Shown: positions 1 through 33,212 of the stretch, piece after piece | Numbering within the stretch: position 1 is the stretch's first letter | How the letters are laid out: each line of letters begins with the position of its first letter | From: Nanobdellota archaeon | GTDB taxonomy: Archaea > Nanobdellota > Nanobdellia > Woesearchaeales > GW2011-AR4 | NCBI GenBank assembly: GCA_038046185.1 | Contig: JBBSWR010000144.1 | Coordinates: 1 to 44,182 of the forward strand | DNA length: 44,182 bases | Direction: 5' to 3' | Notes under the pieces: model-generated | Told to the model about the DNA's origin: nothing | The model's database searches: none | The model's input: only the letters and a program-made list of their open reading frames with translations | Program-made: the position numbers and the translations under genes

Positions 1-1193
1 ATTATGGGCAAAATAGTTCTTATTTAGCATCTACAACAACTAATGTTGATGTTGTTTTGAATACGACAAGAGCAAGCGAGGCAAATGTTACTATAATCGA
101 ATCTCTAAATAACAGCGTAGTAAACAAATTGATAAATTTTAATGTAACGGCAAATATAACCATGCTTGGAAATGATGGAATAGGCTGCAATGCTACAGTA
201 AGTTTTTCCGATGACCAGACTATAAATGTAACCTCCGGGGAAAATCTTACACATGCATTGGGGAATATTCCGTTTGGAAATTCTAAAGTTACTAACTGGA
301 GCCTAACTGGATTACACGAAGGCAGTTCTAATATCACCGTTAGAGCATATTGCGAGTTAGATGGCATAAAACTTGATAAATTGGATTTTTACATACTTCG
401 GAATATTACAATACGAAATCTAGCACCAGTAATAACAAGAATAGCAATAGTTTCACCAATTGATTTGGCAGCTGGCGACAATTTAAGTGTCGAATGTAAT
501 GCCACTGTGAATGAAAATAATACTGTAGCAGATATAAGAAATCTAAATGCTACACTCTATCAGAGTTCGATTGGCCATTATGCTCCTGATGATAATAACA
601 ACCACTATACAAACACTAGCTGCACAAATGTAAGTTCAAATACATTTGAGGCTAATTACTCATGCGGATTTAAGGTTGCATATTATGCCAATAATGGTGA
701 ATGGCAATGTAATGTCAGCGCCGTGGATTTTAGCAATGTAACTGCATTTTTTAATATTTCAACTTCTATAAATGAATTAATGGCAATTGATGTAAGCCCT
801 GCAATAATTGATTATGGAAACTTAAAGGCGACAAATGTCTCAGGTGATTTTAATGTCACAATCAGAAATGTTGGAAATATGCCAATTAATACGACTGTAA
901 GGGGTTTTGCACCCAGTGAGGGCTTGGCTTATTTAAATTTGTCAATGGTATGCGAAAGCAGCAATATATCAAATGCAAATCAAAGGTTTTCTGCTGTAAA
1001 TGGGACAGATTTTACACAAATGACAAAGCTTAATAATGATACTCAAACAATAAATTTAACTCTTCCCCAGAGAACCAACGATCTAAGTTTTGGGAATGAT
1101 TCAAATTTAACTTTTTGGAAACTGCAAGTGCCTCCTCTAAGAGCAGGCATATGCAACGGAACTTTATTGTTTGGGGCTATACCCATGGTTTGA
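1..1193 (+). CDS. Secreted/surface protein very rich in N-glycosylation sequons; 5' end runs off the window (partial)
   Basis: The frame stays open from nt 3 to the stop at 1191-1193 (the track starts it at a TTG at 57). I count about 32 N-x-S/T sequons in the 378 aa shown. The C-terminal block LTLPQRTNDLSFGNDSNLTFWKLQVP..GICNGTLLFGAI is shared with the 10991..11974 product. Confidence 0.6.
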   Translation, partial: YGQNSSYLASTTTNVDVVLNTTRASEANVTIIESLNNSVVNKLINFNVTANITMLGNDGIGCNATVSFSDDQTINVTSGENLTHALGNIPFGNSKVTNWSLTGLHEGSSNITVRAYCELDGIKLDKLDFYILRNITIRNLAPVITRIAIVSPIDLAAGDNLSVECNATVNENNTVADIRNLNATLYQSSIGHYAPDDNNNHYTNTSCTNVSSNTFEANYSCGFKVAYYANNGEWQCNVSAVDFSNVTAFFNISTSINELMAIDVSPAIIDYGNLKATNVSGDFNVTIRNVGNMPINTTVRGFAPSEGLAYLNLSMVCESSNISNANQRFSAVNGTDFTQMTKLNNDTQTINLTLPQRTNDLSFGNDSNLTFWKLQVPPLRAGICNGTLLFGAIPMV

Positions 1194-1206
1194 CAAGCGG
1201 CGTAAA

Positions 1207-2313
1207 ATGAAACGAAACAAAATAGTAAGCACATTCTTTATAATCTTGCTGATGCTGTTATTTTCAGCTGCAACCTCGAAAATAACAAATGCATATTTTT
1301 ACAACATAACTTACAACTGCTTATACGATACTTGCATCAGCGGACAAAATGCAACATGGCATGTCACACTGCTTAATGCTGGAACACAAGAAATCGAATT
1401 TATAAGAATTGGATTATTTGACTCCATAAATAAGAGTTTGTTTGCTTTTCTTGATATTCCTTTTTACCCGAACAGCGATAAAAGAGGCAACTTGATTACA
1501 GTAGGAGCCAATAAAAAGGTTCTTGTAAACATAACAGGCAAGCTTCCAAAAGCTAGTTATGGCAATAACCTTTTGATTTATTATCCCTGTTTTACTGCAA
1601 CTATCACAGACAGCTATATAATAGCCCAGGAAAATAAATATGAAACTACCCACTGCTATTATGTCAATGAAACAATGCTGGTGTACGAATGCATTTCCAA
1701 CGATAATTGCAGGAAAGAGGAATTTTGCAACTTTAATAGCTGCGTTAAACTCAACTGCAAAAATTGCCAGTATATCCAAGACCATAGATGCAGGGATTAT
1801 GAGTGCTGCAGTTCCGGGCAATGCGAATTTAATGAGACATGCTTGAATAATACATGCCAAAATTTAGCCTGTAACTTTGATGAATATATCTACAATAATT
1901 CCTGCAACGCTTTAAGCTGCGCTTTTGACGAGTTTATTTTTAATAAAACATGCATAAAAATAAATTGCGATCTTAACGAGTTCGCTTTCAACCATACATG
2001 CAGGGAATTGAACTGCAGCGATAGTGAGTACTTTGCAAATCACACATGCAAAATGATGGATTGCAAGCAGGAAGAGTATGCGAAAAATCATGCCTGTATT
2101 AAATTAAATTGTCTTAATAACGAAAGTATTTTTAATCACACCTGCAAACCCCTAAATTGTTCCTTTTTTCAGGATATCACTAATCATTCATGCATAAGCA
2201 ATAAAAAGGTTATTTTTAAACTGTCTTTAGAGATAGCAGCTATCATTATGATAGTGCTGTTTTTCGTGATAGATTTTAAAAAATTTGAGAAAAAACGCCA
2301 TGATGAACTATAA
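1207..2313 (+). CDS. Membrane-anchored cysteine-rich tandem-repeat surface protein
   Basis: ATG at 1207 gives MKRNKIVSTFFIILLMLLFSAATS (signal/anchor). C-terminal hydrophobic helix IAAIIMIVLFFVIDF is followed by a basic tail. It contains seven tandem 16-aa units, each with two Cys and an N-x-T/S-C sequon. Confidence 0.65.
   Translation: MKRNKIVSTFFIILLMLLFSAATSKITNAYFYNITYNCLYDTCISGQNATWHVTLLNAGTQEIEFIRIGLFDSINKSLFAFLDIPFYPNSDKRGNLITVGANKKVLVNITGKLPKASYGNNLLIYYPCFTATITDSYIIAQENKYETTHCYYVNETMLVYECISNDNCRKEEFCNFNSCVKLNCKNCQYIQDHRCRDYECCSSGQCEFNETCLNNTCQNLACNFDEYIYNNSCNALSCAFDEFIFNKTCIKINCDLNEFAFNHTCRELNCSDSEYFANHTCKMMDCKQEEYAKNHACIKLNCLNNESIFNHTCKPLNCSFFQDITNHSCISNKKVIFKLSLEIAAIIMIVLFFVIDFKKFEKKRHDEL
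1858..2192 (+). repeat. Seven in-frame tandem ~48-bp (16-aa) repeats inside CDS 1207..2313
   Basis: Units: NLACNFDEYIYNNSC / NALSCAFDEFIFNKTC / IKINCDLNEFAFNHTC / RELNCSDSEYFANHTC / KMMDCKQEEYAKNHAC / IKLNCLNNESIFNHTC / KPLNCSFFQDITNHSC. Confidence 0.8.
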
Positions 2314-3493
2314 AAAATTATTTGGATTTGTAATTTTAATGGCAATGTTTTCATTATTCGCGCCTTATGCCAATGCAGTCAGCATAGGGATAAGCCCAGG
2401 CCGGGTTAAATTTGAGAATGTGCTTAGAGGTGGCTATTCTGAAAGAGCCGTCACAATTAGCACCGGCGGTGAAGAGGAGTTATTTGCCTCCTATCGTGTT
2501 AGTGGAGATATAAAGGATTGGTTAAGGTTTGAGCCGAATTCTACAACTTTTAATTTATCGAGAGGCAGCCCTTACAAGCTAAAAATAATAATACAGCCCC
2601 CGCCTGATGTAAGATTAGGCAATTATTCTGGCAGTATAGAATTTATTACTGAAGGCATTGGAGGCGTACCTGGAAGGGCTGGCGCAGTGATCAAAACCGC
2701 AGTGACTTTGCTGGTTAATATTGAAGTTGGCGGTAAAGAAATTATAAATTGCCGGGCTGGGGGGTTCAACTTTAATGATGCTGAAGTTGGTTTTCCCTTT
2801 GAGTTTGATTTTACCATGATTAATGATGGCAATGTTAGGCTAAAGCCAACTCTTGCACTGGATATATGGGACCAGCCGCAGGAAAATTTACTTCTTAGCC
2901 GGAAATTTGCTGGTGATGAAGTGCTGCCTACAACTCAAAAAATAATACATGGAACAATTCCCAATAATCTAAAAGAAGGCCAATACTGGGTGAATATGGG
3001 GGTTGAGGAATGCAAAGTAAGCAGCTTTTCAACTTTTAGTGTTGTTGAGAAGGGAGGTATTGTTGATAAAGGAGATTTAAAAGAGATTATTAACAAGCCA
3101 TGGGCATACACCAATGAAACGATACAAATAAAAGCGAAATTCGAAAATTCAGGAAAAAGATCTGTATCAGCAAAATTCAAGGGCGTGATAAAACTTGATG
3201 ACAGAGTCGTTAAACTTATAGAAACAGAAGAGATAATTGTGCCAGCAGGCCAAACATCTGACTTTGACCTATTCTTTCAGCCCGAAGCGCCGGGAAGATA
3301 CGTGCTTACAGGCAGGGTAATCTACAATAAAAAATTGACTTTTGAAAAAGGCACTGTGCTAAACGTAAATACTCCGCCGGAAGAAGAAAAGAAAACTAAT
3401 CTTACCCTGTTGCCACTGTTGATTTATGCCACTATAATTGTAACCATCCTATTTATAATGCGCAAAATATTCAAAGAGAAAACAAAATTTTAG
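2300..3493 (+). CDS. Surface protein with signal peptide, beta-rich ectodomain and C-terminal TM anchor
   Basis: ATG at 2300 gives MMNYKKLFGFVILMAMFSLFAPYANA. C-terminal helix LLPLLIYATIIVTILFI is followed by RKIFKEKTKF. The ectodomain sequence style (ISPGRVKFENV.., GNYSGSIEFIT) resembles the ectodomains of the ATPase proteins at 19756 and 25551. It overlaps the upstream gene by 14 nt. Confidence 0.65.
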   Translation: MMNYKKLFGFVILMAMFSLFAPYANAVSIGISPGRVKFENVLRGGYSERAVTISTGGEEELFASYRVSGDIKDWLRFEPNSTTFNLSRGSPYKLKIIIQPPPDVRLGNYSGSIEFITEGIGGVPGRAGAVIKTAVTLLVNIEVGGKEIINCRAGGFNFNDAEVGFPFEFDFTMINDGNVRLKPTLALDIWDQPQENLLLSRKFAGDEVLPTTQKIIHGTIPNNLKEGQYWVNMGVEECKVSSFSTFSVVEKGGIVDKGDLKEIINKPWAYTNETIQIKAKFENSGKRSVSAKFKGVIKLDDRVVKLIETEEIIVPAGQTSDFDLFFQPEAPGRYVLTGRVIYNKKLTFEKGTVLNVNTPPEEEKKTNLTLLPLLIYATIIVTILFIMRKIFKEKTKF

Positions 3494-3521: not shown

Positions 3522-3944
3522 TTACATCTCTGCTGTTTTTACTTTAAACTGGAGCTCATGTTTTCTAATTTCCCTAATCCATATAAGCCCTATCCTAATC
3601 ATTAATTTATTGAAATTCTCAGATAACTTATAAGTCCTCTTGTAGAGGTCATAATCAATAATGCCCATGGCTCTCAGGGGAGTCAATATTCTATCATAAA
3701 ACTGCCTTTTGTTATAGGATAGTTTGACTGTTTTGCCCTTATAAGGCTCTTCATCAATTTGCGTTATAAGTTCACCCTCGTGAAGTTTTGTAGCGAACAA
3801 GGACATCTCTGTTTTACTCATCTCACTGTTGTTCTCTTTAAAACAATTAATCAGGACTTTTCCTACTATTTTTTGCTGTGAAGTCGCGAAAATTATATCA
3901 TATATATTACCAGGCAGATTATACTGATTAACCAAAATAACCAC
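3522..3944 (-). CDS. Hypothetical protein, possibly a small DNA-binding (winged-helix-like) protein
   Basis: 140-aa ORF with an apparent GTG start. It is the only minus-strand ORF in a + strand block and is divergent from the glycosyltransferase gene. No motif I can name with certainty. Confidence 0.4.
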   Translation of the reverse strand: MVILVNQYNLPGNIYDIIFATSQQKIVGKVLINCFKENNSEMSKTEMSLFATKLHEGELITQIDEEPYKGKTVKLSYNKRQFYDRILTPLRAMGIIDYDLYKRTYKLSENFNKLMIRIGLIWIREIRKHELQFKVKTAEM

Positions 3945-4328: not shown

Positions 4329-5525
4329 ATGAAAGTTCTTATGTTTGGATGGGAATTTCCTCCGTATAGCAGCGGCGGCTTAGGAACAGCTTGCTATGGT
4401 TTAACAAAAAGCTTGAGCAAACAGAATGTTGATATAACTTTTGTTTTGCCATGCTCACTTAATACATCAGAGTCTGGTTTTATAAACATAATATCCACAA
4501 ATGTTAAAATCAAATCAATAAAATCTATTTTAAGCCCTTACTTAACTTCTCAAAGCTACTATAAAATAAAAGATAAAATTCAACCGCAGATTTATGGTGA
4601 TTCTTTATTTGATGAAGTGTATAGATATTCAGAAGAAGCAAAAAGAATAGCTTTAGAAGAGAATTTTGATATAATACACTGCCATGATTGGATGACTTTC
4701 AAAGCAGGAATTAATGCAAAAAGATTAAAGAATAAGCCCTTAATTGTCCACATCCATTCTACAGAATTTGACAGAACAGGGGGCAGCTGCATAAACCAGT
4801 ATGTGTATGACACGGAAAAAGAGGGCATGGAAGCTGCTGACGCAGTTATAGCAGTAAGCAATTTCACAAAAAATAAGATTTTACGGCATTATGGCATAAA
4901 TCCAGATAAGGTTCATGTGGTTCATAACGCTGTAGAGCTTAAAGACTGCGATGGTAACGAGAATTTTGAAATTAAAAGATACGATAAAATTGTTTTGTTC
5001 TTAGGCAGGATAACCCTTCAAAAAGGACCTGATTATTTCTTGTATGCAGCAAAAAAAGCTCTAGAATATGAACCTGATATTAAATTTATTATAGCCGGCT
5101 CGGGCGACATGGAACCATTCATTATAGAGAAAGCTGCTGAGCTTGGAATTGCAGACAAGGTTTTATTTGCAGGTTTTTTACAAGGCGAGGACGTCGATAG
5201 AGCATATAAAATGGCTGATTTATATGTTATGCCGTCTGTTTCTGAGCCATTTGGAATAACAGCTTTGGAAGCAATGAGAAATGGCACTCCTATATTAATA
5301 TCAAAGCAAAGCGGCGTTTCAGAAGTGATACAACATTGCTTAACAGCAGATTTTTGGAATATAGACGATATAGCGGATAAGATAATAGCCGCGCTTAGGT
5401 ATAAAGCACTGCATCAAAGCTTGAAAGAGCATGGCTCATTGGAAGTGAGAAAATTTAATTGGGACGAGCCAGCCGGAAAATGCATAAATATTTATAATGA
5501 GTTATTAACAAAATGCGGAGGCTGA
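4329..5525 (+). CDS. Glycosyltransferase, GT-B fold, group 1 (glycogen/starch-synthase-like)
   Basis: N-terminus MKVLMFGWEFPPYSSGGLGTACYGLTKSL matches the K-x-G-G-L style donor-binding start of GlgA-like enzymes. C-terminal VMPSVSEPFGITALEAM is the E-x7-E motif of GT1/GT4-type transferases. Confidence 0.8.
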   Translation: MKVLMFGWEFPPYSSGGLGTACYGLTKSLSKQNVDITFVLPCSLNTSESGFINIISTNVKIKSIKSILSPYLTSQSYYKIKDKIQPQIYGDSLFDEVYRYSEEAKRIALEENFDIIHCHDWMTFKAGINAKRLKNKPLIVHIHSTEFDRTGGSCINQYVYDTEKEGMEAADAVIAVSNFTKNKILRHYGINPDKVHVVHNAVELKDCDGNENFEIKRYDKIVLFLGRITLQKGPDYFLYAAKKALEYEPDIKFIIAGSGDMEPFIIEKAAELGIADKVLFAGFLQGEDVDRAYKMADLYVMPSVSEPFGITALEAMRNGTPILISKQSGVSEVIQHCLTADFWNIDDIADKIIAALRYKALHQSLKEHGSLEVRKFNWDEPAGKCINIYNELLTKCGG

Positions 5526-5530
5526 TAAAA

Positions 5531-5836
5531 ATGTCTAGAACAAGCAAAGAAGATGCAAAAAATATTTTGAGTAACGTGCCGGAGGACAAAGTCTTTTGGT
5601 TAAATAATGGGGGAGTATTAAGAAATTTACAGGAACTGTCATCAGCGTTGGCTGATATTAGTGAAGAAACATTTGGATATTATGTAAATAATGAAAAAAA
5701 TGATTTTAAGAATTGGGTTAATGATGTAATTGGCGACAAAAAGCTTGCTGATGAAATAGCAAAAACAAAATCTAAAGAGCACCTATTAAGCAGAGTTAAC
5801 AAAAGGATTAATCAGCTAAATACATTAATTAAGTAA
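5531..5836 (+). CDS. Small protein with N-D-F-x-x-W helical domain (paralog 1 of 3)
   Basis: ATG at 5531 is preceded by GGAGG. Motif: NGGVLRNLQELSSAL..FGYYVNNEKNDFKNWVNDVIGDKKLADEIAK. It aligns with the products of 6027..6317 and 6397..6729 and with the C-terminus of the 19756..22095 ATPase. Confidence 0.7.
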   Translation: MSRTSKEDAKNILSNVPEDKVFWLNNGGVLRNLQELSSALADISEETFGYYVNNEKNDFKNWVNDVIGDKKLADEIAKTKSKEHLLSRVNKRINQLNTLIK

Positions 5837-5875
5837 AGAGAATTTTGAAATATATCCTTTTTGTCAAAATTCTCT
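5837..5875. repeat. Palindromic intergenic unit AGAGAATTTTGAA...TCAAAATTCTCT
   Basis: agagaattttga (5837-5848) is the exact reverse complement of tcaaaattctct (5864-5875). Confidence 0.8.
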
Positions 5876-5876
5876 A

Positions 5877-5981
5877 AGAGAACTTTGAATGTCCTAAAAA
5901 ATTGCAATGCAATTTTTGGGAACTTGAAAATCTTGGATTTTCAAGTAAATGGCAAAAATAAGGGATTATTTAAAGTTCTCT
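5877..5981. repeat. ~100-nt double-hairpin intergenic element, copy 1
   Basis: The outer arms agagaactttgaa ... tttaaagttctct enclose the hairpins aaaaattgca/tgcaattttt and acttgaaaatc/gattttcaagt. It is homologous to 29961..30056. Confidence 0.75.
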
Positions 5982-6026
5982 AAAGATTATCCAGCAAATT
6001 TAAATGTCAAATAAAAGGTGGTAAAA

Positions 6027-6317
6027 ATGGTTATTAAAAATTTAGTTTTTGATTGTGAAGAAGAGTGCGGCTTTAAGCTGGCTAATGGGGGAATATTAAG
6101 AAATTTAAATGACCTTAATGGCAGTTTGGATGAGATGGATGAAGGTGTTTTTAGGCATCACGTAACTGACGAAAAAAATGACTTTGGCAATTGGGTAAGG
6201 GAGGTTTTAGGGGACGAAAAGCTTGCAGACGATTTAGCCATAGCAAAAAACAAAAACATGGCTCAAGTGGCAGTTCTGAAAAGAATGATTGAATTGGTAA
6301 AAGATATCATTAAATAA
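6027..6317 (+). CDS. Small protein with N-D-F-x-x-W helical domain (paralog 2 of 3)
   Basis: ATG at 6027 follows AGGTGG. Motif: NGGILRNLNDLNGSL..FRHHVTDEKNDFGNWVREVLGDEKLADDLA. Confidence 0.7.
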   Translation: MVIKNLVFDCEEECGFKLANGGILRNLNDLNGSLDEMDEGVFRHHVTDEKNDFGNWVREVLGDEKLADDLAIAKNKNMAQVAVLKRMIELVKDIIK

Positions 6318-6396
6318 AAATATAATAGATTATGGTAAAATTTCATGACTAATCGAAAGGTTTATATTGCTTTCAATTTAAATTGCTGGCGGTCAA

Positions 6397-6729
6397 ATGA
6401 AAAAAAAAGGCGGAAAAATCAGGGTTAGGAAAAAAGGCAGTTATAAAAGGACATTAAGGCTATCCGATACAAAACCAGAGTTCTATTTTAAGTTGATTAA
6501 TGGTAAAAGCATAAAAAATATTTTGGGTTTAGCAGATGATTTGGATAAAATACCGGATGAAGTACTTTATCATCATGTAAACCCGCAAAGAAATGATTTC
6601 AGTAATTGGCTCAGGGATATTTTTAAGCAGAAAAAGTTAGCAGACGAAATATCAAAAGTGCAAAGCAGGCTGGAAATCCAGGTAATTTTATTAAAGTTTA
6701 TTGTCAAACAATTAAAAAGGTTACGCTAA
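6397..6729 (+). CDS. Small protein with N-D-F-x-x-W helical domain (paralog 3 of 3), basic N-terminal extension
   Basis: Motif: NGKSIKNILGLADDL..LYHHVNPQRNDFSNWLRDIFKQKKLADEISK. N-terminus is MKKKGGKIRVRKKGSYKR. Confidence 0.7.
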   Translation: MKKKGGKIRVRKKGSYKRTLRLSDTKPEFYFKLINGKSIKNILGLADDLDKIPDEVLYHHVNPQRNDFSNWLRDIFKQKKLADEISKVQSRLEIQVILLKFIVKQLKRLR

Positions 6730-6731: not shown

Positions 6732-8417
6732 ATGAGCCGCACAAAAAAAATCTCAATTTTGTTTTTATTTTTGATATTTTTGCTGCAATCGGTAATCGCA
6801 GCTGAACCGGACAGGATTCTATCAAACTCAGAAGACTGGAGGGATGTTTATTCAGTAATACTTTACGGAAACTTAGTGGGCAAGCAAGCCAGCTTTTTAG
6901 TTAGCGATAGGCATGCAACCCTTATACTTAACCAAATACCAAAATACAGCCACATATGGGCAATTAGTTCAAAAAAAGTCCCTTATGTAGTTGGATACAA
7001 AAATCTTTTGGAAAGCAAGGGGTATACAGCAGAGGAATTTGCTTATGATAATGCAAATTTGGAGCTTGCAAAGAAGTTAGGGGAGATAACTAATTTCATA
7101 ATAATTGATGACTCTTATGGGTATAATGCGATTTCAGTTGCCCCTTATACAGTTACTGCAAAGTATTATGTATTATTTGCTGATAAAGATAATATCAAAG
7201 ATGTTGATAAATTTCTAAGTGGAAGGAAGGTAAACAAGATTTTGCTTTACGGGAACTTGGACAGAGAAGTTAAAAATACACTTTCTAAGTATAATCCTGA
7301 GATAATAAATAAAGAGGGCGACAGATTTCTTAATAACATAGAGATAGTAAAGAAGTATCAGGAGATAAAGCATTCTAAACAGGCAGTCCTAACAAATGGG
7401 GAGTTTATTGAGCATGAGATAATGTCCGGTGCAGAGCCGGTTATCTTTATTGGGACTAACAATGTTCCTGATGCTGTTAGAGATTATATAAAAAGCAGTG
7501 ATATTGAAGTTGGCGTATTAATAGGAAATGAGCTGGTTGGCACAGCAACTTTCATAAGAAGGCAAATCGGCATTAGCGTTTTCGTTAAATTTGCCCAAGG
7601 CGCAAGAGCGCCGCAGGGGGCAATTTCACAGGTCGAAGCATTAGACATGTTTTATCTGCCAACATCCAATTTGAATTTAGAGGTAGAATCTATAAAATAT
7701 AATAAAGCAACAAACAAGCTGGAAGTGACTGTTAAAAATACAGAAGCTCAGGCGGTTTATTTCATAGGAACTTACTCTTTGACCGCCTCCGACGGCGCAA
7801 AACAAACTATGGGAGATATAGGGGTAAATTTTATTGATGGAAAGGAGACAAAAACACTGACTTATGACGTAGAGACAATGCCTGATGGCGATATAGGCGT
7901 GGACATTTTTATTATTTACGGCGAATCAAAAGGCTCTCTTGAGAAGGAAATAAGAAAGAGTATGCAAGTGCAGACTGTAAGAGTTTTAGACGAATGCCAA
8001 GTTGAAATCAAAGAAACTATGTTCAACAAGGGAAATAAGCAATTCTATATTGCTGTTGAGAATACTGGGAAGGTTGACTGCTATGTTGATGCCGAAATTA
8101 TTGACATCCTGATTGCCGGAGAGAAATCAACTTTTGGGCTGGATAATCCGTCATTTTTAAACAGCGGCAGCAAAAAGAACTTGATAATAAAAGTTGATAA
8201 TTTGCAAGAAGAGGACTTGGCAGACAATGAAAAAATAAAGGTACGGGCTTATTATGGGGAAAGAGAGGGCACTTTAGTAAAAGTGATTGAGGGCACTTTC
8301 GAGCTGATAGTGAAGAGTATTGATTACTTATTCTATTCATTACTTTTAGTGATAATTTTGTTAGTCATTTTGATTATATGGAAAAGACGAAAAAGGAAGG
8401 AAGAAAAAAGCCATTAA
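6732..8417 (+). CDS. Large secreted protein with signal peptide and C-terminal TM anchor
   Basis: Starts 2 nt after the previous stop. Signal-like ISILFLFLIFLLQSVIAAEP. C-terminal helix LLLVIILLVILIIW is followed by KRRKRKEEK. The N-terminal half vaguely resembles cell-wall-binding repeat modules (unverified). Confidence 0.65.
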   Translation: MSRTKKISILFLFLIFLLQSVIAAEPDRILSNSEDWRDVYSVILYGNLVGKQASFLVSDRHATLILNQIPKYSHIWAISSKKVPYVVGYKNLLESKGYTAEEFAYDNANLELAKKLGEITNFIIIDDSYGYNAISVAPYTVTAKYYVLFADKDNIKDVDKFLSGRKVNKILLYGNLDREVKNTLSKYNPEIINKEGDRFLNNIEIVKKYQEIKHSKQAVLTNGEFIEHEIMSGAEPVIFIGTNNVPDAVRDYIKSSDIEVGVLIGNELVGTATFIRRQIGISVFVKFAQGARAPQGAISQVEALDMFYLPTSNLNLEVESIKYNKATNKLEVTVKNTEAQAVYFIGTYSLTASDGAKQTMGDIGVNFIDGKETKTLTYDVETMPDGDIGVDIFIIYGESKGSLEKEIRKSMQVQTVRVLDECQVEIKETMFNKGNKQFYIAVENTGKVDCYVDAEIIDILIAGEKSTFGLDNPSFLNSGSKKNLIIKVDNLQEEDLADNEKIKVRAYYGEREGTLVKVIEGTFELIVKSIDYLFYSLLLVIILLVILIIWKRRKRKEEKSH

Positions 8418-8950
8418 GTTTTTTGTAGTTTTTATTTCTTCGTTTTTACCAAAACATAAAAATTGCTGTTGGTATAGCAAAATACACAAGTTCTTAGGCA
8501 TAATTATGCCTTTTGCTTGTCAAAAATCAGAGATTCGTCAGAAGTGAAACATTTTCGACATGCGAGTGTTCGAAAATTCTATATAAAATTTTTGATATAT
8601 TACGAACGGACAACAATTGTCTAATTATTTTTGTCCGTGAGTATAGCCCCATCTTTGCAGATGCCAATTCCTGCTCTTTTATAGATTTCTATAGGGAATT
8701 TTAAAATATTATCAATTATTTAAAAATTACTAATTTTTAAACAAAGCAAATCAGAGATTTGCTAGTCTCGAAAATCTATGATTTTCGAAATTTCAAAAAC
8801 CCAATGGGTTTTCTCTACGCTAAAGTTCTCTTTAACTCCATTTACAAATGAAAAAAGTTCATTATTAAAAAATTTTACTCTATAATTATGTCAATACTTA
8901 ATTTTCTCTTTAATTATTTTAGTTTAAAAATTACAATAATACAGTAGAAA

Positions 8951-8968
8951 ACGAAACATTTAAATATA
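8951..8968 (+). promoter_or_regulatory. BRE/TATA-like promoter box upstream of the ArsR-family gene
   Basis: acgaaacatttaaatata lies 44 bp upstream of the 9012 start. The same box occurs at 15002 and 25222. Confidence 0.55.
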
Positions 8969-9011
8969 AGTTAGGTTATAGCAAATTGGTGTATGTTTTT
9001 GTATACTGAGA

Positions 9012-9662
9012 TTGGAAACAATAGATAATGTATATTCAACTAAAATGGAACTAGAATTGTTATTTTCAGACCAAAAGTGGAACATTCTAAAATGCCTTTC
9101 AGAGAATAAGTACAGCCCAATTCAGCTTGCTGAAAAACTTAATACAAGTACTGCTAATATAAGCCAGCAAATGAGGCTGCTGGAAGCGGCAAATCTTGTC
9201 AAAAAGGAAAAAATAAAAAATAGGGACAAAGGCAAGCCAAGAACTTTATTTTCCCTGACAGAAGATTATGCTTACTTGATTCCGGCAATGAATGGTTTTG
9301 CGGATAAGAAACTTCTAAAGGTGCAAGATCATCACAAAATTATTTTGAAAATCTGGTTTTTAGAAAATCCGGATTTGCACCCGCAGCTTGAGTACCTATG
9401 CTGGAAGATTGAGCCTTATCTTGCAAATATAGATGCTATTGCTGTTAATAAATCTTCCAAAATTGTAATTATAGTATCAAACAAGAGAGACGAAATCATG
9501 AAAATTGCTGAAAAAAATAAATCAATAAATGTGGAAGTTTTTTCGATAGAAGAAGCTGAAAGTTATTTGAAACACGGTAAAAAGCCCTTATTTTCGATTA
9601 TTGATTTGGCTATAATTCATGACCGCAATAAAATTTTTTCAAAGAAATTAGTGCCTGTATAA
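9012..9662 (+). CDS. ArsR/SmtB-family winged-HTH transcriptional regulator with C-terminal extension
   Basis: KWNILKCLSENKYSPIQLAEKLNTSTANISQQMRLLEAANLVKKEK..GKPRTLFSL is a typical ArsR HTH plus wing. Start is either the TTG at 9012 or the ATG at 9045. A BRE/TATA-like box lies at 8951-8968. Confidence 0.75.
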   Translation: METIDNVYSTKMELELLFSDQKWNILKCLSENKYSPIQLAEKLNTSTANISQQMRLLEAANLVKKEKIKNRDKGKPRTLFSLTEDYAYLIPAMNGFADKKLLKVQDHHKIILKIWFLENPDLHPQLEYLCWKIEPYLANIDAIAVNKSSKIVIIVSNKRDEIMKIAEKNKSINVEVFSIEEAESYLKHGKKPLFSIIDLAIIHDRNKIFSKKLVPV

Positions 9663-9686
9663 AATGTTTGCAATTTATTGAAGAGT

Positions 9687-9753
9687 TGGAATTTTGGCAG
9701 AAAACATCCTAAAACACCTCGAAATGAAGAAAGATGTTCTAAGGCCAAAATTC
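9687..9753. repeat. 67-bp hairpin repeat, copy 1 (upstream of CDS 9804..10550)
   Basis: tggaattttggcagaaaacatcctaaaacacctcgaaatgaagaaagatgttctaaggccaaaattc is identical to 10611..10677. The ends gaattttggc/gccaaaattc are inverted repeats. Confidence 0.9.
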
Positions 9754-9803
9754 CTCTCTTTTTATTTGATCTCAAAAAATAAAGTGCAGGAGGGTAAACG
9801 AAA

Positions 9804-10550
9804 ATGAAAGTGTTAAGCGTAATTGTAGCGATAATTGGTTTGGTTTTACTAAGTTATACGGTATTTGCAGATCCGGTGGGACCTGGAACGGTTCAAGTAC
9901 AAAGTCCTGCTGACAGAAGAACAACAGGTATAGATGCAACAACAGGAATAGGAGTTCAGGCTCAAGCAGGCAACGTGACTGCATTGAACATCAACTCAAC
10001 AAGGCTGACAAGCAGGTGGCAGGGCTACTATGGAAATGTATCAGGGGTGATAACACTAGATGATGCAACTAATAATACATTATACAATTGGCAAATAGCA
10101 AGCCCTCGAGGTGAGATTTATGCAGTAAACCACACCACAACGCCTACATGGGCTAATGTTGAATGCTTTAACTTTACTGATGCCTCGCAAAACGTCACTT
10201 TGGGTGGGCTAGAGAGTTCTATAGGAGCAGCACAAACAGATAGAGACGGTGTGAATGAAACATTTAATCTTACTTACAGCGGTTCATTTAGTGCCGGCAG
10301 TAAAACTATATTAGCAGGAGATGGATGTCCAATAGCATCTTTGTATGTCAGCGATGCTTGGACTGGAACCAAATTCAACGAGACAATATTGTTCGAAAAT
10401 CAGTCAGCTGAAAGAGTGATATATGTAGCGTTGCTTGAGCAGGACCAAACCGGCTTTTCAGGAAGCAGTCTAGACTTTGAGATGTTAGTTGGTGAGAATG
10501 GTGATAGCGTACAGGCAACTAGCTATTACTTTTTCGTAGAGCTGACATAA
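9804..10550 (+). CDS. Secreted hypothetical protein (signal peptide, sequon-rich)
   Basis: GGAGGG lies 8 nt upstream of the ATG. N-terminus MKVLSVIVAIIGLVLLSYTVFADP. The gene is bracketed by identical 67-bp hairpin repeats. Confidence 0.65.
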   Translation: MKVLSVIVAIIGLVLLSYTVFADPVGPGTVQVQSPADRRTTGIDATTGIGVQAQAGNVTALNINSTRLTSRWQGYYGNVSGVITLDDATNNTLYNWQIASPRGEIYAVNHTTTPTWANVECFNFTDASQNVTLGGLESSIGAAQTDRDGVNETFNLTYSGSFSAGSKTILAGDGCPIASLYVSDAWTGTKFNETILFENQSAERVIYVALLEQDQTGFSGSSLDFEMLVGENGDSVQATSYYFFVELT

Positions 10551-18500: not shown

Positions 18501-19751
18501 GAAGATATACTGTCTCAAATAAGTGAAATTATGTCGGAGATTGGCAGCTTAAATGCAGAAAACAAAGAAGCTGCAGAAGCGCTGCAATTAAAGAACAATT
18601 TAGATAAAGCAGTAATAGCCGTACAGAGGGCTAACAGAGACTTACACAGCCTACAATGGAGAAAACTAAATGACACCGAATTAGAGGAAGAAACAAAAAA
18701 TATCCTCAATAGAATAAAAATTTTGAAGGATACTACTCCAAAAACTATAAAAGTAATTGATAAAAATGAATTTGTTAAGTATCCCAACAAGGAGGATATA
18801 AATAATGCGCTTCAAATACTGGCTAATTCCACAAATGCCAAATTAAGCAAAAACAATTTGAACGACCTAGTGCAGCAAAACTTTAAGTTGCAGTCTTTGA
18901 TTAGTGTTACAACAAAAGCCAAAATAATCGACGTTGAGTACATATCTGGAAATAAAAATACAATAACCCTTATACAAAAAATAGTCAACTTTGATAAAGA
19001 CTTTAAAGATTTAGTCTATTTTGAAGTTATACCAAAGGGCATTGCAAAAAATTTAACCGAGCTTAAATTATTGTTTGATTATGAGGTTGTTGATAATGAC
19101 CCTGTTATTAAGATTGACCTATCAAAGATAAAAGATTATTCTTTCTACGTGGAAAAAAAAGTGAGCCTAGAGAGCACCGAGGAAATAAAATCTGTGTTGT
19201 TAAGCAAAAACTTGAAATCCGAAAGCGGAAACTTACTGACAGGATTTTCTGTATTTGACCAGATTCCGGGAAATTTAGTTAAAACATTGAATGCAAGATT
19301 AATTATCGAGTTTGCCGTTATGATAATCCTGCTGCTTGTGTTTTTGCATTACCAGTTTGGAAGCTCTGGTAAATTTAAGTACGCATTTAATGGGAAGGAA
19401 TTAAATGAAACCAAACAGCTGATAGATTCGGCCCTAGTTGAAGTTAATAATAATAATTATGAAAAATCTTCCTTGATATACAAAGAGGTTAATATTAAAT
19501 TTAATAATCTTGATAAAAAGAAAAAAGATATGATTAAGGATTCTGTTATAGAATTGATAAATAGAATTAATAGATTATACATTAATCAGCTGGCAGAAAA
19601 GGCAAATAACTGCATAAAGGCAAATAATAAGCAGGCGGCATTTGCAATTTATTCTCAAATACAATCTTTGTATAGGGTAATACCTAAGAATTACAAGGCT
19701 GAAGTTTCAAAGAAATGTTTGGAACTTTATAGTGCAATGAACTCAAATTAA
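15513..19751 (+). CDS. Giant (1412 aa) type-I-like surface protein: N-terminal anchor, sequon-rich ectodomain with PKD-like and carboxypeptidase-regulatory-like domains, C-terminal TM and cytoplasmic helical tail
   Basis: N-terminal TM LMFHIILLILILCFWLIFALAV. PKD-like stretch VSYKWDFQNDGVIDSTSDSQVFTYASNGTYTVNLTVSD. Cys knot QNGDETGVDCGGGCGTC. CarboxypepD_reg-like stretch VTVIVRDNSTSSAIQNAEIWL..GFYRLMVKKPGY. C-terminal TM LIIEFAVMIILLLVFLHY followed by a ~120-aa tail. Confidence 0.8.
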   Translation: MNKAGNKQSEKKLMFHIILLILILCFWLIFALAVKAYQNEKGIYLSIDNLELNQQDVIFDLDNVNSGLHSKNKTIFLNLKYGDDINYDKDNDGIEKINGVIDFVADAKFNWDVYEDKLCARWEIYSIEKNSLTAICYGSQKCCGFVSLDSTRENWSTPLYLTYGMHDASENNIISAQVIYVDYNLSRERPYSEIYYSRWSSLTARFEESIGSVKNISMEEALRSVDKIRRNNTQIKKIDLKDKYGNELRELSQGKNASMVFSVAHSKVNDNSTSRLSRQNVNNEIIVSLNDFNASNADWDSSKNIKIKTENIGLEDSLKQYGMDTKAIVSVQGVDDFISDKNYYGTVKFNISDVFNVVIYCPDDKIGSCRYAQECINGFKGVECYVKNLSSLIIYVPHFSSIILGLDNRTANLTIKSPENSSVLQSGENIYLNFTINETVNANYSLDAKPFINLGNEASFSGLLNGSINYGILENGAHNISINIRDIFGNKAIINYSFWVNDTAAPNVLLNITNNTAFSGTSGLISASFNSSEYSTLSYKINNNNFSNPIDLGANKYKIMNITFSGGVNNLTINASDFHNNGNLNYFSFNFTLFQQPSCSDALQNGDETGVDCGGGCGTCINFSVATDRESYNLTDNVFVTVIARANSTVNLTIIRQDLVAYRHTFIPVFSGAPVAETRIISNTSNAGNYTINATLYYLNITQYINRTFEILPPVASPIAVTIMPNATTIKEGNPVFFASSVSGNNSAVSYKWDFQNDGVIDSTSDSQVFTYASNGTYTVNLTVSDSKWNQTDLETIYVKKVYNVTVIVRDNSTSSAIQNAEIWLEDEIRNTTGSGTADYSNIAGFYRLMVKKPGYAQFSNKTEINGNSLLEVVLIEDDNLPPIIQLISPTDKSTISNGIISFVYRALDKSLLSCTLYTKMNSSEWKISGVDSNLQSNAENSFTISGLKNTTYEWKIGCIDAGSNSNYSEIYSFTVDASLIENQLSIDLNEEDKNSEDILSQISEIMSEIGSLNAENKEAAEALQLKNNLDKAVIAVQRANRDLHSLQWRKLNDTELEEETKNILNRIKILKDTTPKTIKVIDKNEFVKYPNKEDINNALQILANSTNAKLSKNNLNDLVQQNFKLQSLISVTTKAKIIDVEYISGNKNTITLIQKIVNFDKDFKDLVYFEVIPKGIAKNLTELKLLFDYEVVDNDPVIKIDLSKIKDYSFYVEKKVSLESTEEIKSVLLSKNLKSESGNLLTGFSVFDQIPGNLVKTLNARLIIEFAVMIILLLVFLHYQFGSSGKFKYAFNGKELNETKQLIDSALVEVNNNNYEKSSLIYKEVNIKFNNLDKKKKDMIKDSVIELINRINRLYINQLAEKANNCIKANNKQAAFAIYSQIQSLYRVIPKNYKAEVSKKCLELYSAMNSN

Positions 19752-19755: not shown

Positions 19756-22095
19756 ATGAAATCAATAAAAGAAGTGCAAAATAATAAATTAATAGAGCTC
19801 GTAGTAATAATATCCTTATTCTTTATACTCAGTATAGACCTCCATGCTTTCGCCCAAACCAGCGTTAAAATTGAGCCTGAGCAAATAACTAAAAGAGTAA
19901 AACTAGGAGATTTCGTTGAAGTTCCAATCAAAATAACAAATGACGGCACTACTCAATTATCCTTAAGATTTGGCATTGAAGGCGATTTGATTAAAGTTGC
20001 GGCATTAGATAAAAATGGCGCTGCTATAGAGCCTGGGGCTGCTGAGCAGATAAAGCTAACTGTATTCGGAGAAAATATAACCACGCTTACAGGGCATTTT
20101 ACTGTTTCAGGAACAATTGAAGAAAGAATACCAATTAACATAACTGTAACTAGCTTAGACACAATTCCTGTAGAAGCATTACTGATTGAAATAGAACCCA
20201 TAACCGAAAAAGCAAAAATAGGGGACATCTTTAAGTATAAGATAAGCCTGCAAAATCTCATAACCGACAGAACATATAATGTTACATTATCTTCAAGCAT
20301 AGACAGATTGGAAGACCAATCAACTTATAAATTTGAAAAATCATTTTTTACGGAAACGGATGATGTGCAGCTATCCACTGCTTTTTCCCTAGTGAAGGAA
20401 TTTGCCATGCCTGATTTTATCAGACCGGGAGAATATGTGATAAACGTAAAGGCAGAGTATCTTGGCTTGTCATCGTCATCCAGCAAACGCTTTAGGGTAG
20501 TAGAGCCAATTCTTGACTATGAGTTATTGGGCATACTGCCCATTAGATGGGCATTGTTCTCAGGAATATTTGTTATAACCGGATTATTATCCTTTTTTAT
20601 CTATAAGAAGAGGAAGGCTAAAAATAAGCGATATGTTGCAAAAGTTGAATATAGCCTGTTGCCCCAGCCAGGCCCAAGATCAGCGTATATAGGTATGATA
20701 CCGGAAACAAACAAAAAAACTTATTTTGACATAGACCAATTGCAGACGCATACACTAGTTGCCGGCTCCACAGGCGGCGGCAAGACAGTATCAGCTGAGG
20801 TTCTGGTCGAGGAAGCTTTAATTAAAGGAACGGCTGTGATAGTCTTTGATCCCACTGCCCAATGGACGGGCTTCTTAAGAAAGAATGCTGATAAAAGAAT
20901 GTTTGCCCTCTATCCAAAATTTGGCCTTAAGAAGACTGATGCAAGGGCTTTCAATGGAAATATAAGGCAGATTATGAATGCAAGGGAGATTATAGATATT
21001 AAAAAATTTATTAAGCCCGGGGAAATAAACATTTTTTCAGTGAGCAAATTAGATCCTGAAGATATTGATATACTTGTTGCAAATACCGTAAGGGAAGTAT
21101 TTCATGCAAACCTTCCTGAAAGCAGCCAGTTAAAACTTCTCATAATTTTTGATGAAGTTCACAGATTATTGCCAAAATTTGGCGGCTCAGGGCAAGGTTT
21201 CATACAGATAGAAAGAGCAGCCAGAGAATTCAGAAAGTGGGGAGTCGGCTTGATACTAATAAGCCAAGTTTTGACAGATTTTGTAGGAGAGACAAAAGCC
21301 AATATAAACACAGAAATACAAATGAGAACCAGAGATCAAGGAGACCTCGAGAGGATAAAGAACAAGTATGGCTCTTACATGCTTCAGTCATTGCTTAAAT
21401 CTGCAACCGGCACAGGCATGATGGAAAACGCAGCATATAATAAAGGCAATCCTTATTTCGTATCTTTTAAGCCGCTGCTGCACGAGCATGCGCGCTTAAG
21501 CGACGAGGAATTGGATAATTACAACAAATACAATGAAGTTATAGAAGATTTAGACTACCAGCTTGAGCAGCTTGAAAAATCTGGAGTGGATATATTTGAT
21601 CTAAAGCTCGAGGTTAAGATGGCCCTTGATAAGGTAAAGTCAGGGAGCTTCAATATGGTTAATATATATCTTGAAGGGCTTACTCCAAGGATAAAATCCA
21701 ATTGGGATAAATTAGGCAAACAGCCTGAAAAAAGGAGATTAAAACTGGTTACAGAATCAGAATTAAAAGAAGAGCTGGAACGAGCCAAAGAAGCGAGAAA
21801 AAAATTCGAAGATCATCAGAAATCGGCTCCTAAATCTGGTTTAGAGGAACATGGAGTTCTCACGCTAAAAAATGGAATTGTAATAGCAAAGAAAAAAGAA
21901 ATGTTAGACGCGCTTCAGGCAATAGACGATAAAACATTCATAGCTCATGTTAACGAGCAGAGAAATGATTTCAGTGATTGGCTGGCAAATATCGATAAGG
22001 AAGCAGCTGAAAAAATAAAGGCAATAAAGACAAGAAAAGAGATGATAGAGATTTTAAAAAAGCTTGAAGCGCAAAATCAGGCAATTCCAAGTTAA
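19756..22095 (+). CDS. Bitopic membrane protein: ectodomain - TM - cytoplasmic HerA/FtsK-like (DUF87-type) P-loop ATPase - C-terminal N-D-F-x-x-W domain
   Basis: Signal/anchor LIELVVIISLFFILSIDLHAFA. TM WALFSGIFVITGLLSFFIY followed by KKRKAKNKRY. Walker A VAGSTGGGKT. Walker B LLIIFDEVH. HerA-like AAREFRKWGVGLILISQ. C-terminus FIAHVNEQRNDFSDWLANI. Confidence 0.8.
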   Translation: MKSIKEVQNNKLIELVVIISLFFILSIDLHAFAQTSVKIEPEQITKRVKLGDFVEVPIKITNDGTTQLSLRFGIEGDLIKVAALDKNGAAIEPGAAEQIKLTVFGENITTLTGHFTVSGTIEERIPINITVTSLDTIPVEALLIEIEPITEKAKIGDIFKYKISLQNLITDRTYNVTLSSSIDRLEDQSTYKFEKSFFTETDDVQLSTAFSLVKEFAMPDFIRPGEYVINVKAEYLGLSSSSSKRFRVVEPILDYELLGILPIRWALFSGIFVITGLLSFFIYKKRKAKNKRYVAKVEYSLLPQPGPRSAYIGMIPETNKKTYFDIDQLQTHTLVAGSTGGGKTVSAEVLVEEALIKGTAVIVFDPTAQWTGFLRKNADKRMFALYPKFGLKKTDARAFNGNIRQIMNAREIIDIKKFIKPGEINIFSVSKLDPEDIDILVANTVREVFHANLPESSQLKLLIIFDEVHRLLPKFGGSGQGFIQIERAAREFRKWGVGLILISQVLTDFVGETKANINTEIQMRTRDQGDLERIKNKYGSYMLQSLLKSATGTGMMENAAYNKGNPYFVSFKPLLHEHARLSDEELDNYNKYNEVIEDLDYQLEQLEKSGVDIFDLKLEVKMALDKVKSGSFNMVNIYLEGLTPRIKSNWDKLGKQPEKRRLKLVTESELKEELERAKEARKKFEDHQKSAPKSGLEEHGVLTLKNGIVIAKKKEMLDALQAIDDKTFIAHVNEQRNDFSDWLANIDKEAAEKIKAIKTRKEMIEILKKLEAQNQAIPS

Positions 22096-22616: not shown

Positions 22617-23294
22617 ATGGAAAGGGTCAAATCTGGAATAAACGGATTGGATGCTCTCGTAAATGGCGGCTTTCCAAGAGGTCATTCTATACTTTTATGC
22701 GGAGCGCCTGGCACTGGTAAAACCATATTTGGGCTGCAATTTTTGTATAAGGGTGCAAAGAATTTTAACGAGAATGGCTTGTATGTAAGCATAGAGGAAA
22801 ATCCAAGTAAATTAAAAGATTATTCCAAAGAATTCGGCTGGAAGGATATAGACAAACTCGAAAAGGATGGCAAAATACAATTTCTTAGAGTTCCCCCAGA
22901 CAAAAGAAAATTTGATATAGTTGATTCTGTCAGGCAGAAAGTGCAGGAAATTAATGCAAAAAGGCTGGTTGTGGATTCTTTGTCTGCGGTTTATCTGGCA
23001 TTTGAAGATATTACGCAATTCGTATATCACTTTATAAATTTAATAGAAGAACTTGGAATAACCTGCATCTTCATAACAGATTCCCCGCATGGCTCCAGCG
23101 AGTTAACAAAAGATGGCGTATCTGAATTTGTATGCGATGGGGTCATACAACTCCAGCTTAATGATGCCAGCAAAATTGTAAACAGGACGATTGCTGTCAA
23201 GAAGATGAGAGGCACAAGCATAGTTCCAGGACTGAATAGCTTGAAATTTACTGAATCAGGACTAGAAGTTGAGGAATATAAAGCATTTTATTGA
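22617..23294 (+). CDS. Single-domain KaiC/RadA-superfamily ATPase (KaiC-like 1)
   Basis: GINGLDALVNGGFPRGHSILLCGAPGTGKTIFGLQFLYKG (Walker A) and RLVVDSLS (Walker B). 225 aa is the typical archaeal single-domain KaiC-like size. Confidence 0.8.
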   Translation: MERVKSGINGLDALVNGGFPRGHSILLCGAPGTGKTIFGLQFLYKGAKNFNENGLYVSIEENPSKLKDYSKEFGWKDIDKLEKDGKIQFLRVPPDKRKFDIVDSVRQKVQEINAKRLVVDSLSAVYLAFEDITQFVYHFINLIEELGITCIFITDSPHGSSELTKDGVSEFVCDGVIQLQLNDASKIVNRTIAVKKMRGTSIVPGLNSLKFTESGLEVEEYKAFY

Positions 23295-23313
23295 TTTCGC
23301 AATACAACAAAAA

Positions 23314-24015: not shown

Positions 24016-24080
24016 TCATAATTTTAACTTAAAAAAAGTTTAAATAAAAAACAAAAGCACAAATGATGTTGGGTGATTGA

Positions 24081-25434: not shown

Positions 25435-25558
25435 GGAATTGCTCGATTGGCTAGACCAAAAAATAGCCGAAAAAGTGTTCGCAAACAGAAGCCATGGGTT
25501 TGAATATATGATTATGGAAAAGATTAGAGAGAAAACTAAGGAAGAGAAAAATGAATAG
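25403..25558 (+). CDS. Ribbon-helix-helix protein, 51 aa, tandem duplicate of 25270..25434
   Basis: Hand translation: MKERLTITLDKELLDWLDQKIAEKVFANRSHGFEYMIMEKIREKTKEEKNE. It starts inside the 3' end of the first copy in another frame. Its stop lies inside the ATGAATAG that starts the next gene. Confidence 0.55.
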   Translation: MKERLTITLDKELLDWLDQKIAEKVFANRSHGFEYMIMEKIREKTKEEKNE

Positions 25559-33082: not shown

Positions 33083-33128
33083 TGTTCTTCTAAAACTTTA
33101 AATACTCGCCCAAAAAATATTATTTTAT

Positions 33129-33212
33129 GCCACTGTCGCATAACCCGGTAGTGCGGCGGTCTCGAAAACCGCTTTCCGCAAGGATTTCCCGGTTCAAATC
33201 CGGGCGGTGGCG
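33129..33212 (+). tRNA. tRNA-Ser (anticodon CGA), type II, no intron, no encoded CCA
   Basis: Hand fold: acceptor GCCACTG/CGGTGGC (one G-U), D arm GCAT-AACCCGGTA-GTGC, anticodon arm GCGGT-CTCGAAA-ACCGC, 15-nt variable arm, T arm CCCGG-TTCAAAT-CCGGG, discriminator G, then a T-run. Confidence 0.8.

Follow-up and report, generated by a model that had tools for sequence, protein, structure and literature searches.

The 44,182-nt contig JBBSWR010000144.1 of a Nanobdellota archaeon, analysed here over its whole length and called the window below, contains one protein unit of ~75–90 aa in exactly four copies. Three are stand-alone genes, which we call A, B and C, lying behind a gene for a glycogen-synthase-like glycosyltransferase (GT); the fourth forms the tail of a 779-aa membrane-anchored ATPase of the HerA/FtsK type. 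Gene A (5531..5836, + strand; 101 aa, P0001) starts 5 nt past the GT stop codon, downstream of a GGAGG Shine-Dalgarno-like motif, and encodes a single, soluble unit in which no transmembrane (TM) segment was predicted; an alternative ATG at 5513 would give a protein of 107 aa. Gene B (6027..6317, + strand; 96 aa, P0003; alternative GTG at 6018) has a GGTGG Shine-Dalgarno-like motif 5–10 nt upstream of its ATG and likewise encodes a single unit. Gene C (6397..6729, + strand; 110 aa, P0002), whose single unit is extended at the N terminus by a basic stretch, ends 2 nt ahead of the start of a gene for a 561-aa membrane protein. The starts at 5531 and 6027 are those of called genes in a public collection. 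In the ATPase, the unit occupies residues 696–769 (21841..22062, + strand; profile match 1e-15).

The four copies are homologous and are not a generic repeat

Alignment, pairwise BLASTP and a profile scan all agree on four homologous blocks at these positions, as the original prediction had held. Pairwise BLASTP gave 26–45% identity over 68–87 residues (40–80 bits). The residues L, N, G, L, V, N-D-F, W and A are invariant in the four-way alignment, and they include the L-x-N-G segment that had been noticed ahead of each block. A scan of all six frames of the window with a unit profile returned four significant matches (E <= 6e-15), the next best having E > 0.5, so that the four copies align significantly in a profile comparison; the string NDF..W also occurs exactly four times in the window. 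Compared with orthologs 76–81% identical in sequence, genes A and C gave ratios of nonsynonymous to synonymous substitution (dN/dS) of 0.17 and 0.12, respectively. We conclude that A and C are real genes under purifying selection.

The only point in favour of a generic helical or low-complexity repeat is compositional bias, the genome being AT-rich (36% GC) and Lys/Glu-rich. Given four profile matches that stand clear of any six-frame background, membership of a specific Pfam family with a solved relative, purifying selection and conserved synteny (the family and the synteny are described below), we rejected this explanation, whose probability we consider negligible.

The unit corresponds to one half of the Pfam family DUF5752

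All four copies match the Pfam family DUF5752 (PF19027), confirming the family name that the original prediction had tentatively suggested. The matches of B (29.2 bits) and C (33.9 bits) lie above the gathering cutoff of 23 bits, and those of A (21.6 bits) and the ATPase tail (16.2 bits) below it. All 56 of 56 aligned relatives match the same family; the other Pfam matches that recur among these members are weak and uninformative (MitMem_reg in 12/56, DUF5789 in 9/56, DUF7893 in 6/56 and DUF7890 in 4/56). The Pfam model is 208 positions long, and each window unit covers one half of it (positions ~15–100 or ~126–204). Because each unit aligns to one half only, we take the model to be a tandem duplication of the unit. 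The full-length DUF5752/OrfY architecture, with two tandem units in one chain, is not that of the window proteins; single units are the commonest form in databases.

A profile built from the four copies matched the Protein Data Bank (PDB) entry 4CSO, the 216-aa OrfY protein of Thermoproteus tenax, at E 9e-7, with NDFxRW present in both repeats. In a single-sequence search of the PDB with a compact two-unit protein, 4CSO appeared at an insignificant E of 0.45, and the relation to OrfY is therefore seen by profiles only. A 73-aa OrfY fragment, taken from a HMMER alignment and used as a homology query, returned no OrfY homolog candidates. OrfY, whose structure was released in 2014, and the window units have in common an F-x-L-x-(N/D)-G hairpin, an HHV segment and NDFxxW. 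They differ in layout: OrfY and the Pfam model have two units in one chain of ~210 aa, whereas the window has single units in proteins of ~100 aa or one unit at the end of an ATPase.

The structure prediction that had been proposed for the unit gave a confident AlphaFold2 (AF2) model of the protein encoded by gene C (56-sequence alignment; pLDDT 86.5, pTM 0.75). The predicted fold consists of a beta-hairpin and, after it, four to five helices, with the N-D pair at a helix start, and the role of the NDFxxW motif in this model is probably structural. We conclude that the unit is a compact cytoplasmic unit of ~75 aa. A Foldseek search of the PDB with the model of C returned 4CSO as the sole notable match (probability 1.0, E 0.03). 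The model superposed on 4CSO with a TM-score of 0.47 and a root-mean-square deviation that is large since the alignment spans both repeats. Over the Foldseek searches with this model and with the model of a two-unit ATPase tail described below, 4CSO was matched with probabilities of 1.0 and 0.96.

The family is large: 5179 of its clusters at 50% identity match with E <= 1e-3, and 3965 of these reach E <= 1e-10. Named family matches come from Woesearchaeota, Altiarchaeales and similar groups, some homologs are already named 'DUF5752 family protein' by NCBI, and no relatives were found in viral contigs. Literature searches on DUF5752, OrfY and 4CSO found nothing relevant; what is already known consists of the Pfam entry for DUF5752 and the unpublished crystal structure of OrfY. 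The four blocks are, then, single-unit members of the DUF5752/OrfY family, which is catalogued but uncharacterised.

Stand-alone units belong to a conserved alpha-glucan cluster

We surveyed synteny around the unit in one genome per species, which gave 80 loci (79 besides the window). The conserved gene order is a GT4-family glycosyltransferase (~400 aa), a GH57 glycoside hydrolase (~400–430 aa), a unit of type 1 and a unit of type 2, and the cluster often continues with a MinD/ParA-like ATPase, a GT3 (eukaryote-type) glycogen synthase and a GalT-like nucleotidyltransferase; the identities of the cluster genes were confirmed with Pfam. Within four genes of a unit, GH57 is found in 59/79 of the other loci, GT4 in 53/79 and GT3 glycogen synthase in 28/79, and in the 53 loci with GT4 its homologs lie upstream of the units. 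The link to a glycogen-synthase-like GT that the original prediction had drawn from the window alone thus extends to most of the loci surveyed.

The enzymes next to the unit vary. Units lie behind GT4 in Dehalococcoidia and have a GT4 neighbour in the bacterial loci L066 and L069; in the Dehalococcoidia locus L080, a unit adjoins the gene for a GT35 phosphorylase together with three GH57-like genes (assigned by reading the sequence, not by Pfam). A unit adjoins GlgE in a metagenome-assembled genome (MAG) of Chloroflexota (L062), and a GT3 gene, itself preceded by a gene for a glycogen debranching enzyme (GDE), overlaps at its end with the gene for a compact two-unit protein. Since the neighbours vary among GT4, GT3, GT35, GH57, GDE and GlgE, the unit appears tied to alpha-glucan metabolism generally and not to one enzyme family. 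We conclude that the three small genes of the window belong to a conserved alpha-glucan cluster of DPANN archaea and some Chloroflexota.

The passages of a recent review of archaeal glycogen metabolism that concern Thermoproteus tenax, GH57 and DPANN (PMC11046441) treat the GT4 and GH57 pair as a likely, unclarified part of that metabolism and GT3 glycogen synthase as typical of DPANN; these passages do not mention small DUF5752 genes between the GT4 and GH57 enzymes. The role of GT4, priming in the absence of glycogenin and the organisation of granules count among the open points of archaeal glycogen metabolism (PMC11046441).

The cluster also occurs, in the same form as in Woesearchaeota, in MAGs titled 'uncultured Methanosarcinales archaeon (binchicken...)' (L001, L002, L008, L011 and ~20 more). 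The units in these MAGs are 40–47% identical, and the taxonomic labels may be unreliable.

Two old unit types, one of them coupled to MinD in some loci

Units at the first position of the cluster (U1) find their best match among the first-position units of other loci in 54/59 cases, and units at the second position (U2) among second-position units in 43/51. The gap between the U1 and U2 genes has a median of 6 nt. In 58/59 loci, U1 is bare and soluble; U2 continues into a tail (median 40 aa), which includes a C-terminal TM segment in 25/51. We conclude that types 1 and 2 are two old, position-specific subfamilies.

Ten loci contain a MinD/ParA-like gene (L030, L042 at 8329–10139, L048, L050, L052, L073 and four more). 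In 10/10 of them a gene for a type-2 unit protein directly precedes MinD, and in 10/10 its end abuts or overlaps the MinD start, with an overlap of 4 nt in six. In 6/10 the unit protein ends in a basic peptide, [IVL](L/I)SHLK(K/R)V(Y/F)(K/E), for example ..LSHLKKVYK, and in 9/10 a GT3 glycogen synthase gene follows MinD. Judged from this gene arrangement and the shared peptide, the unit protein and MinD look like an adaptor–ATPase pair.

The window carries a reduced, rearranged cluster of ancient paralogs

The first gene of the alpha-glucan cluster in the window (4329..5525, + strand; 398 aa) encodes a GT4-family, GlgM/GlgA-like glycosyltransferase. It matches Pfam Glycos_transf_1 at 1e-36, and also Glyco_transf_4 and Glyco_transf_5, and its best PDB match is 6TVP, the alpha-maltose-1-phosphate synthase GlgM, at 2e-21. 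Against the NCBIfam model glgA_Coryne (TIGR02149) it scores 147 bits, below the cutoff of 302 bits, in an alignment that runs from end to end of the model (1–390/391). From these family matches, we assign the enzyme to the GT4 fold and the glycogen type.

The canonical layout of GT4, GH57, U1 and U2 is not that of the window, where the units stand in the order type-2-like, ambiguous and type-1-like. Gene A scores 115.9 bits with the type-2 profile versus 94.4 bits with the type-1 profile, and gene C 108 bits with type 1 versus 84 bits with type 2; the type of gene B is ambiguous. No homologs of GH57, GT3, the GalT-like protein or MinD were found anywhere in the window, nor was a tail-anchored stand-alone unit. 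The window thus shares GT4 with the archaeal GT4 and GH57 glycogen clusters described in the passages noted above (PMC11046441) and differs from them in lacking GH57 and GT3. In the closest relatives (L081–L084), the order is GT, an ortholog of A, an ortholog of C and the membrane protein, without B, and these loci are likewise without GH57. We conclude that the window cluster is a reduced and rearranged alpha-glucan cluster that has lost GH57.

The original prediction described the unit as amplified threefold, and this did not hold. Paralogs A, B and C are mutually saturated at synonymous sites (dS 1.2–2.9), A and C have separate orthologs in the relatives with two units (70–81% and 66–76% identical, respectively), and A is type-2-like and C type-1-like. 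Recent tandem amplification is therefore rejected by the synonymous saturation, and A, B and C are ancient paralogs. The nearest homolog of gene B is 57% identical; this, together with the absence of B from L081–L084, makes B an extra, older paralog that was kept in the lineage of the window.

A candidate archaeal promoter, AAAGG followed by TTTATAT (6356..6367, + strand), can be read from the sequence ~30 nt upstream of the gene C start. Because of this TATA-like element, gene C and the membrane protein gene may form a transcription unit of their own, so that the window units are probably split into two transcription units, one with GT, A and possibly B, and one with C and the membrane protein gene. 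The membrane protein (6732..8417, + strand; 561 aa) has an N-terminal signal or anchor, a large outside domain and a C-terminal TM segment, with TM segments at residues 4–27 and 525–554. A Pfam scan found no family for it, and its homologs lie directly 3′ of the unit in L003, L008 and L010.

Two further genes of this part of the window recur near the cluster elsewhere. A separate winged helix-turn-helix (wHTH) regulator is encoded at 9012–9662 and has homologs with the cluster in eight other loci, and a homolog of the divergent 140-aa open reading frame (ORF) at 3522–3944 accompanies the GT in L003.

The unit is a conserved tail module of a membrane-anchored ATPase

The ATPase that carries the fourth copy (19756..22095, + strand; 779 aa) has an outside N-terminal domain, TM segments at residues 9–34 and 257–283, and a P-loop core with the Walker A sequence GSTGGGKT at residue 337; it matches DUF87 with 41.1 bits (cutoff 23.2) and HerA_C with 30.8 bits (cutoff 22). 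A charged helical linker of ~100 aa joins the core to the C-terminal unit. From the TM topology and the domain layout, both the core and the unit are cytoplasmic. The protein is not an equivalog of the HerA DNA-repair helicase, CedD or TraD in NCBIfam, where its best score was 42.5 bits versus a cutoff of 800 bits and the matches were partial. It shares the P-loop core with DUF87 and HerA_C with the HerA/FtsK superfamily; what sets these DPANN proteins apart from HerA and FtsK is an N-terminal domain on the outside, an anchoring TM segment and cytoplasmic tails that are exchangeable (a DUF5752 unit, tetratricopeptide (TPR) repeats or a TPR-like motif).

Homologs of the ATPase number 870 in Woesearchaeota and Nanoarchaeota, and the window protein is 77% identical to a Woesearchaeota protein, which, with the groups named among the family matches, marks the window as DNA of a DPANN archaeon. 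In a survey of the tails of 120 homologs (80 short, ~775 aa, and 40 long, ~1300 aa), the fusion to the domain, which had been noticed in the window, proved to be conserved: a C-terminal unit is present in 74/80 short homologs, most of the exceptions being undersized (455–712 aa) and possibly fragments, and one or two units are present in 37/40 long homologs, several of the single-unit ones having Pfam TPR matches. Where a tail has two units, they are parted by K/E/P-rich linkers of 60–180 aa. In an AF2 model of a natural two-unit tail (pTM 0.44), the units have pLDDT ~90 and the linker, with pLDDT < 35, is predicted to be disordered. ATPases with a unit are encoded beside giant surface proteins.

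The window encodes a second such ATPase (25551–29714; 1387 aa), a paralog of the 779-aa protein that lacks a DUF5752 unit. They share 55% identity as far as residue 694 of the short protein, beyond which their tails differ, the unit beginning at residue 696. Because the cores match while the tails differ, we consider the tails to be exchangeable modules. The tail of the long ATPase (29547–29687) has a ~50-aa (52-aa) TPR-like motif in common with the tail of a 1412-aa PKD surface protein (19572–19727), at 35 bits. This motif is a second shared cytoplasmic module of the cell-surface gene cluster.

The original prediction inferred from the shared domain that the GT operon is tied to the ATPase system. 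The synteny survey led us to reject such a link: a HerA-like gene lies near units in only 1/79 other loci, and no HerA-like gene was found within the flanks of the Dehalococcoidia loci that have free units and glycogen genes. In L004, a unit-bearing HerA-like ATPase gene lies within 8 kb of a glycogen cluster, and in a Woesearchaeota contig (L085, 3314–5101), a GT3 gene lies on the strand opposite to, and ~5 kb upstream of, a surface-protein and ATPase cluster; such cases are too rare to establish a GT–ATPase linkage. We conclude that sharing a promiscuous module is no evidence of one pathway.

Directly after the unit-bearing ATPase gene, the window has three tandem genes for single-domain KaiC-like ATPases (22617–24842), the first and third being 55% identical; in other genomes, KaiC does not consistently accompany this ATPase. 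The extracellular part of the long ATPase contains a Gly-Ala/Ser/Gln low-complexity run (27330–27410; GAGSGAGQGAGQGAGQGAGSGAGTG).

The unit is fused to many other partners

The survey of fusion partners that had been suggested at the outset covered the architectures of the top 150 representatives and of the loci. Partners include HerA-like, KaiC-like and P-type cation ATPases (with the unit N-terminal in the last), acetate kinase, transketolase/E1-beta-like proteins, the kleisin ScpA and TM anchors. Among the top 150 representatives, ~29 have TM anchors, ~7 are HerA fusions and 3 are KaiC fusions; the KaiC-like fusions carry 2–3 units each (P0259, P0266 and P0310). The fusions to acetate kinase, the transketolase/E1-beta-like proteins, ScpA and the P-type ATPase lie in L070 (8034–9476), L065 (2130–3521), L078 (7635–8888), L059 (1173–2189) and L080 (14100–16217). 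Unit proteins with one or two TM helices also occur, as do proteins of ~400–480 aa in which two adjacent units are combined with a coiled coil and low-complexity sequence.

In Bacteroidales (L055 at 7962–8378, and also L077 and L079), a single unit is followed by a Lys/Ala-rich, H1-like tail and lies away from glycogen genes. In PMC11046441 it is proposed that Bacteroidetes acquired GT3 glycogen synthase from DPANN, and the unit may have reached Bacteroidales by the same route.

A possible role as a docking or tethering head

The architectures described above are best fitted by an adaptor role, which the original prediction had put forward as a plausible reading. In our formulation, the unit would be a cytoplasmic docking or tethering head, with the attached part supplying an anchor or an activity, and we give this about an even chance of being correct. 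The anchor could be a transmembrane helix; a C-terminal peptide of a unit protein whose translation is coupled to that of a MinD/ParA ATPase; the long, disordered linker of a HerA-like membrane motor; or a KaiC-like or P-type ATPase, or a metabolic enzyme. The tail-less window units A, B and C would be free partners that associate with the glycogen machinery or the granule, and they could pair with tethered units, such as one on an ATPase tail. As its ligand, the head might have a second unit, a glycogen enzyme or the glucan. That units pair with one another is suggested by the tandem arrangement in OrfY and the Pfam model and by the co-conserved pair of type 1 and type 2.

Several observations weigh against a docking role. 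The argument for it comes from architecture and synteny. The AF2 model of the two-unit ATPase tail, at pTM 0.44, shows no confident packing of one unit on the other, and its Foldseek TM-score to 4CSO is 0.25. A Rosetta-stone test was negative, in that natural two-unit proteins are mostly type-2-like or ambiguous and do not combine type 1 with type 2. The unit is absent from all glycogen enzymes seen, and the glycogen and ATPase clusters are not syntenic in general. Lastly, the window cluster is atypical in having no GH57, GT3, MinD or tail-anchored unit, and what is inferred from the canonical cluster may therefore not transfer to it fully.

We weighed three other functions for the unit. It might bind the alpha-glucan polymer or granule directly and act as a granule tether, in the manner of Stbd1 or, through MinD/ParA, of phasin/PhaM- or McdB-like proteins. 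Direct glucan binding stays a live alternative because the polymer is the common denominator of the neighbourhoods: glycogen itself is what loci with GT4, GT3, GT35, GH57, GH133 (GDE) and GlgE as neighbours have in common. TM-anchored and MinD-coupled forms inside glycogen clusters point the same way, as does the Lys/Ala-rich, H1-like tail in Bacteroidales, which resembles that of PhaM, and the fusions to sugar and energy enzymes are compatible with it. However, known carbohydrate-binding modules are almost all beta-sandwiches, and the unit is a small helical domain without similarity to such modules in Pfam or Foldseek searches. Moreover, its conserved residues look like core and helix-cap positions and not like an aromatic platform, and the HerA-like, KaiC and ScpA fusions would be left unexplained. 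We regard direct glucan binding as rather improbable, though it is the likeliest of the three.

Slightly less probable still is a small-molecule sensing regulatory domain that would pass on metabolite or energy signals, as pairs of ACT or CBS domains do. The distribution of the unit (stand-alone, in tandem pairs, and fused to enzymes, to a P-type transporter ATPase and to other ATPases) does resemble that of ACT and CBS domains, and N, D and H residues are invariant. However, the model places the invariant N and D where helices begin, a position suggestive of capping. We prefer docking to sensing because many fused units are carried on long disordered or coiled-coil linkers, which would transmit allostery poorly, and because many members consist of the head and a membrane anchor or low-complexity tail only, with nothing to regulate in cis. 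That unit proteins are transcription factors for the adjacent glycosyltransferase operon is very improbable. The idea draws on the molecule name of 4CSO ('OrfY protein, transcription factor'), on a weak match to the TBPIP_N winged helix in 2/56 members and on the adjacency of the genes to operons. Against it, scans of Pfam and NCBIfam gave no significant match to helix-turn-helix, ribbon-helix-helix, wHTH or other DNA-binding families, and the window already has the wHTH regulator at 9012–9662. Three properties make docking preferable here: the unit is mildly acidic (median pI 6.2, net charge -2), lacks a DNA-binding motif and is often tethered to the membrane, as in the fusions to membrane ATPase tails and TM anchors.

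Returning to docking, the closest parallels in logic are McdB of carboxysomes, PhaM of polyhydroxybutyrate granules and Stbd1, a tether of glycogen. In each, a small cargo-binding head would correspond to the unit, followed by a disordered region and an anchor, the latter being a TM helix, a basic tail that binds DNA or a terminal peptide that acts on a ParA/MinD ATPase; unit proteins, too, are encoded inside a storage-body cluster. The parallel is an analogy: McdB, PhaM and Stbd1 have no sequence or fold similarity to the unit, and the window is without a MinD/ParA gene or an anchored stand-alone unit. A literature search on ParA/MinD with glycogen granules found nothing relevant. OrfY, like the window units, is associated in the genome with glycosyltransferases that use NDP-sugars: work by Kouril et al. 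in 2008 reportedly found orfY to be co-transcribed with the gene for the GT4 enzyme TreT.

A wider scheme can be imagined, in which type-1 units would mark the glycogen machinery or granule across DPANN and pair with units on TM anchors, on the MinD/ParA partner and on flexible HerA-like tails, with acetate kinase, transketolase-like enzymes, ScpA and KaiC recruited by the same tag. We consider such a system unlikely; if it existed, it would be an unrecognised system for storage-granule positioning or metabolon organisation in ultra-small archaea. The family-level picture itself, of a unit that spans one half of the Pfam model and comes in two types in glycogen clusters, of coupling to MinD and of promiscuous tagging, appears to be undescribed. 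The two co-conserved unit types are near-obligatory in the GT4-GH57(-MinD-GT3) clusters of DPANN and some Chloroflexota, and the small unit proteins are candidates, open to testing, for accessory factors in the glycogen metabolism of archaea. The finding for the window is a modest one: its genes are ordinary family members in a reduced cluster.

Other features of the window

Three consecutive ORFs of ~380–400 aa occupy 57–3493; they have no Pfam family, and no similarity among them was detected. The sole tRNA of the window, a tRNA-Ser (CGA), lies at 33128–33213.

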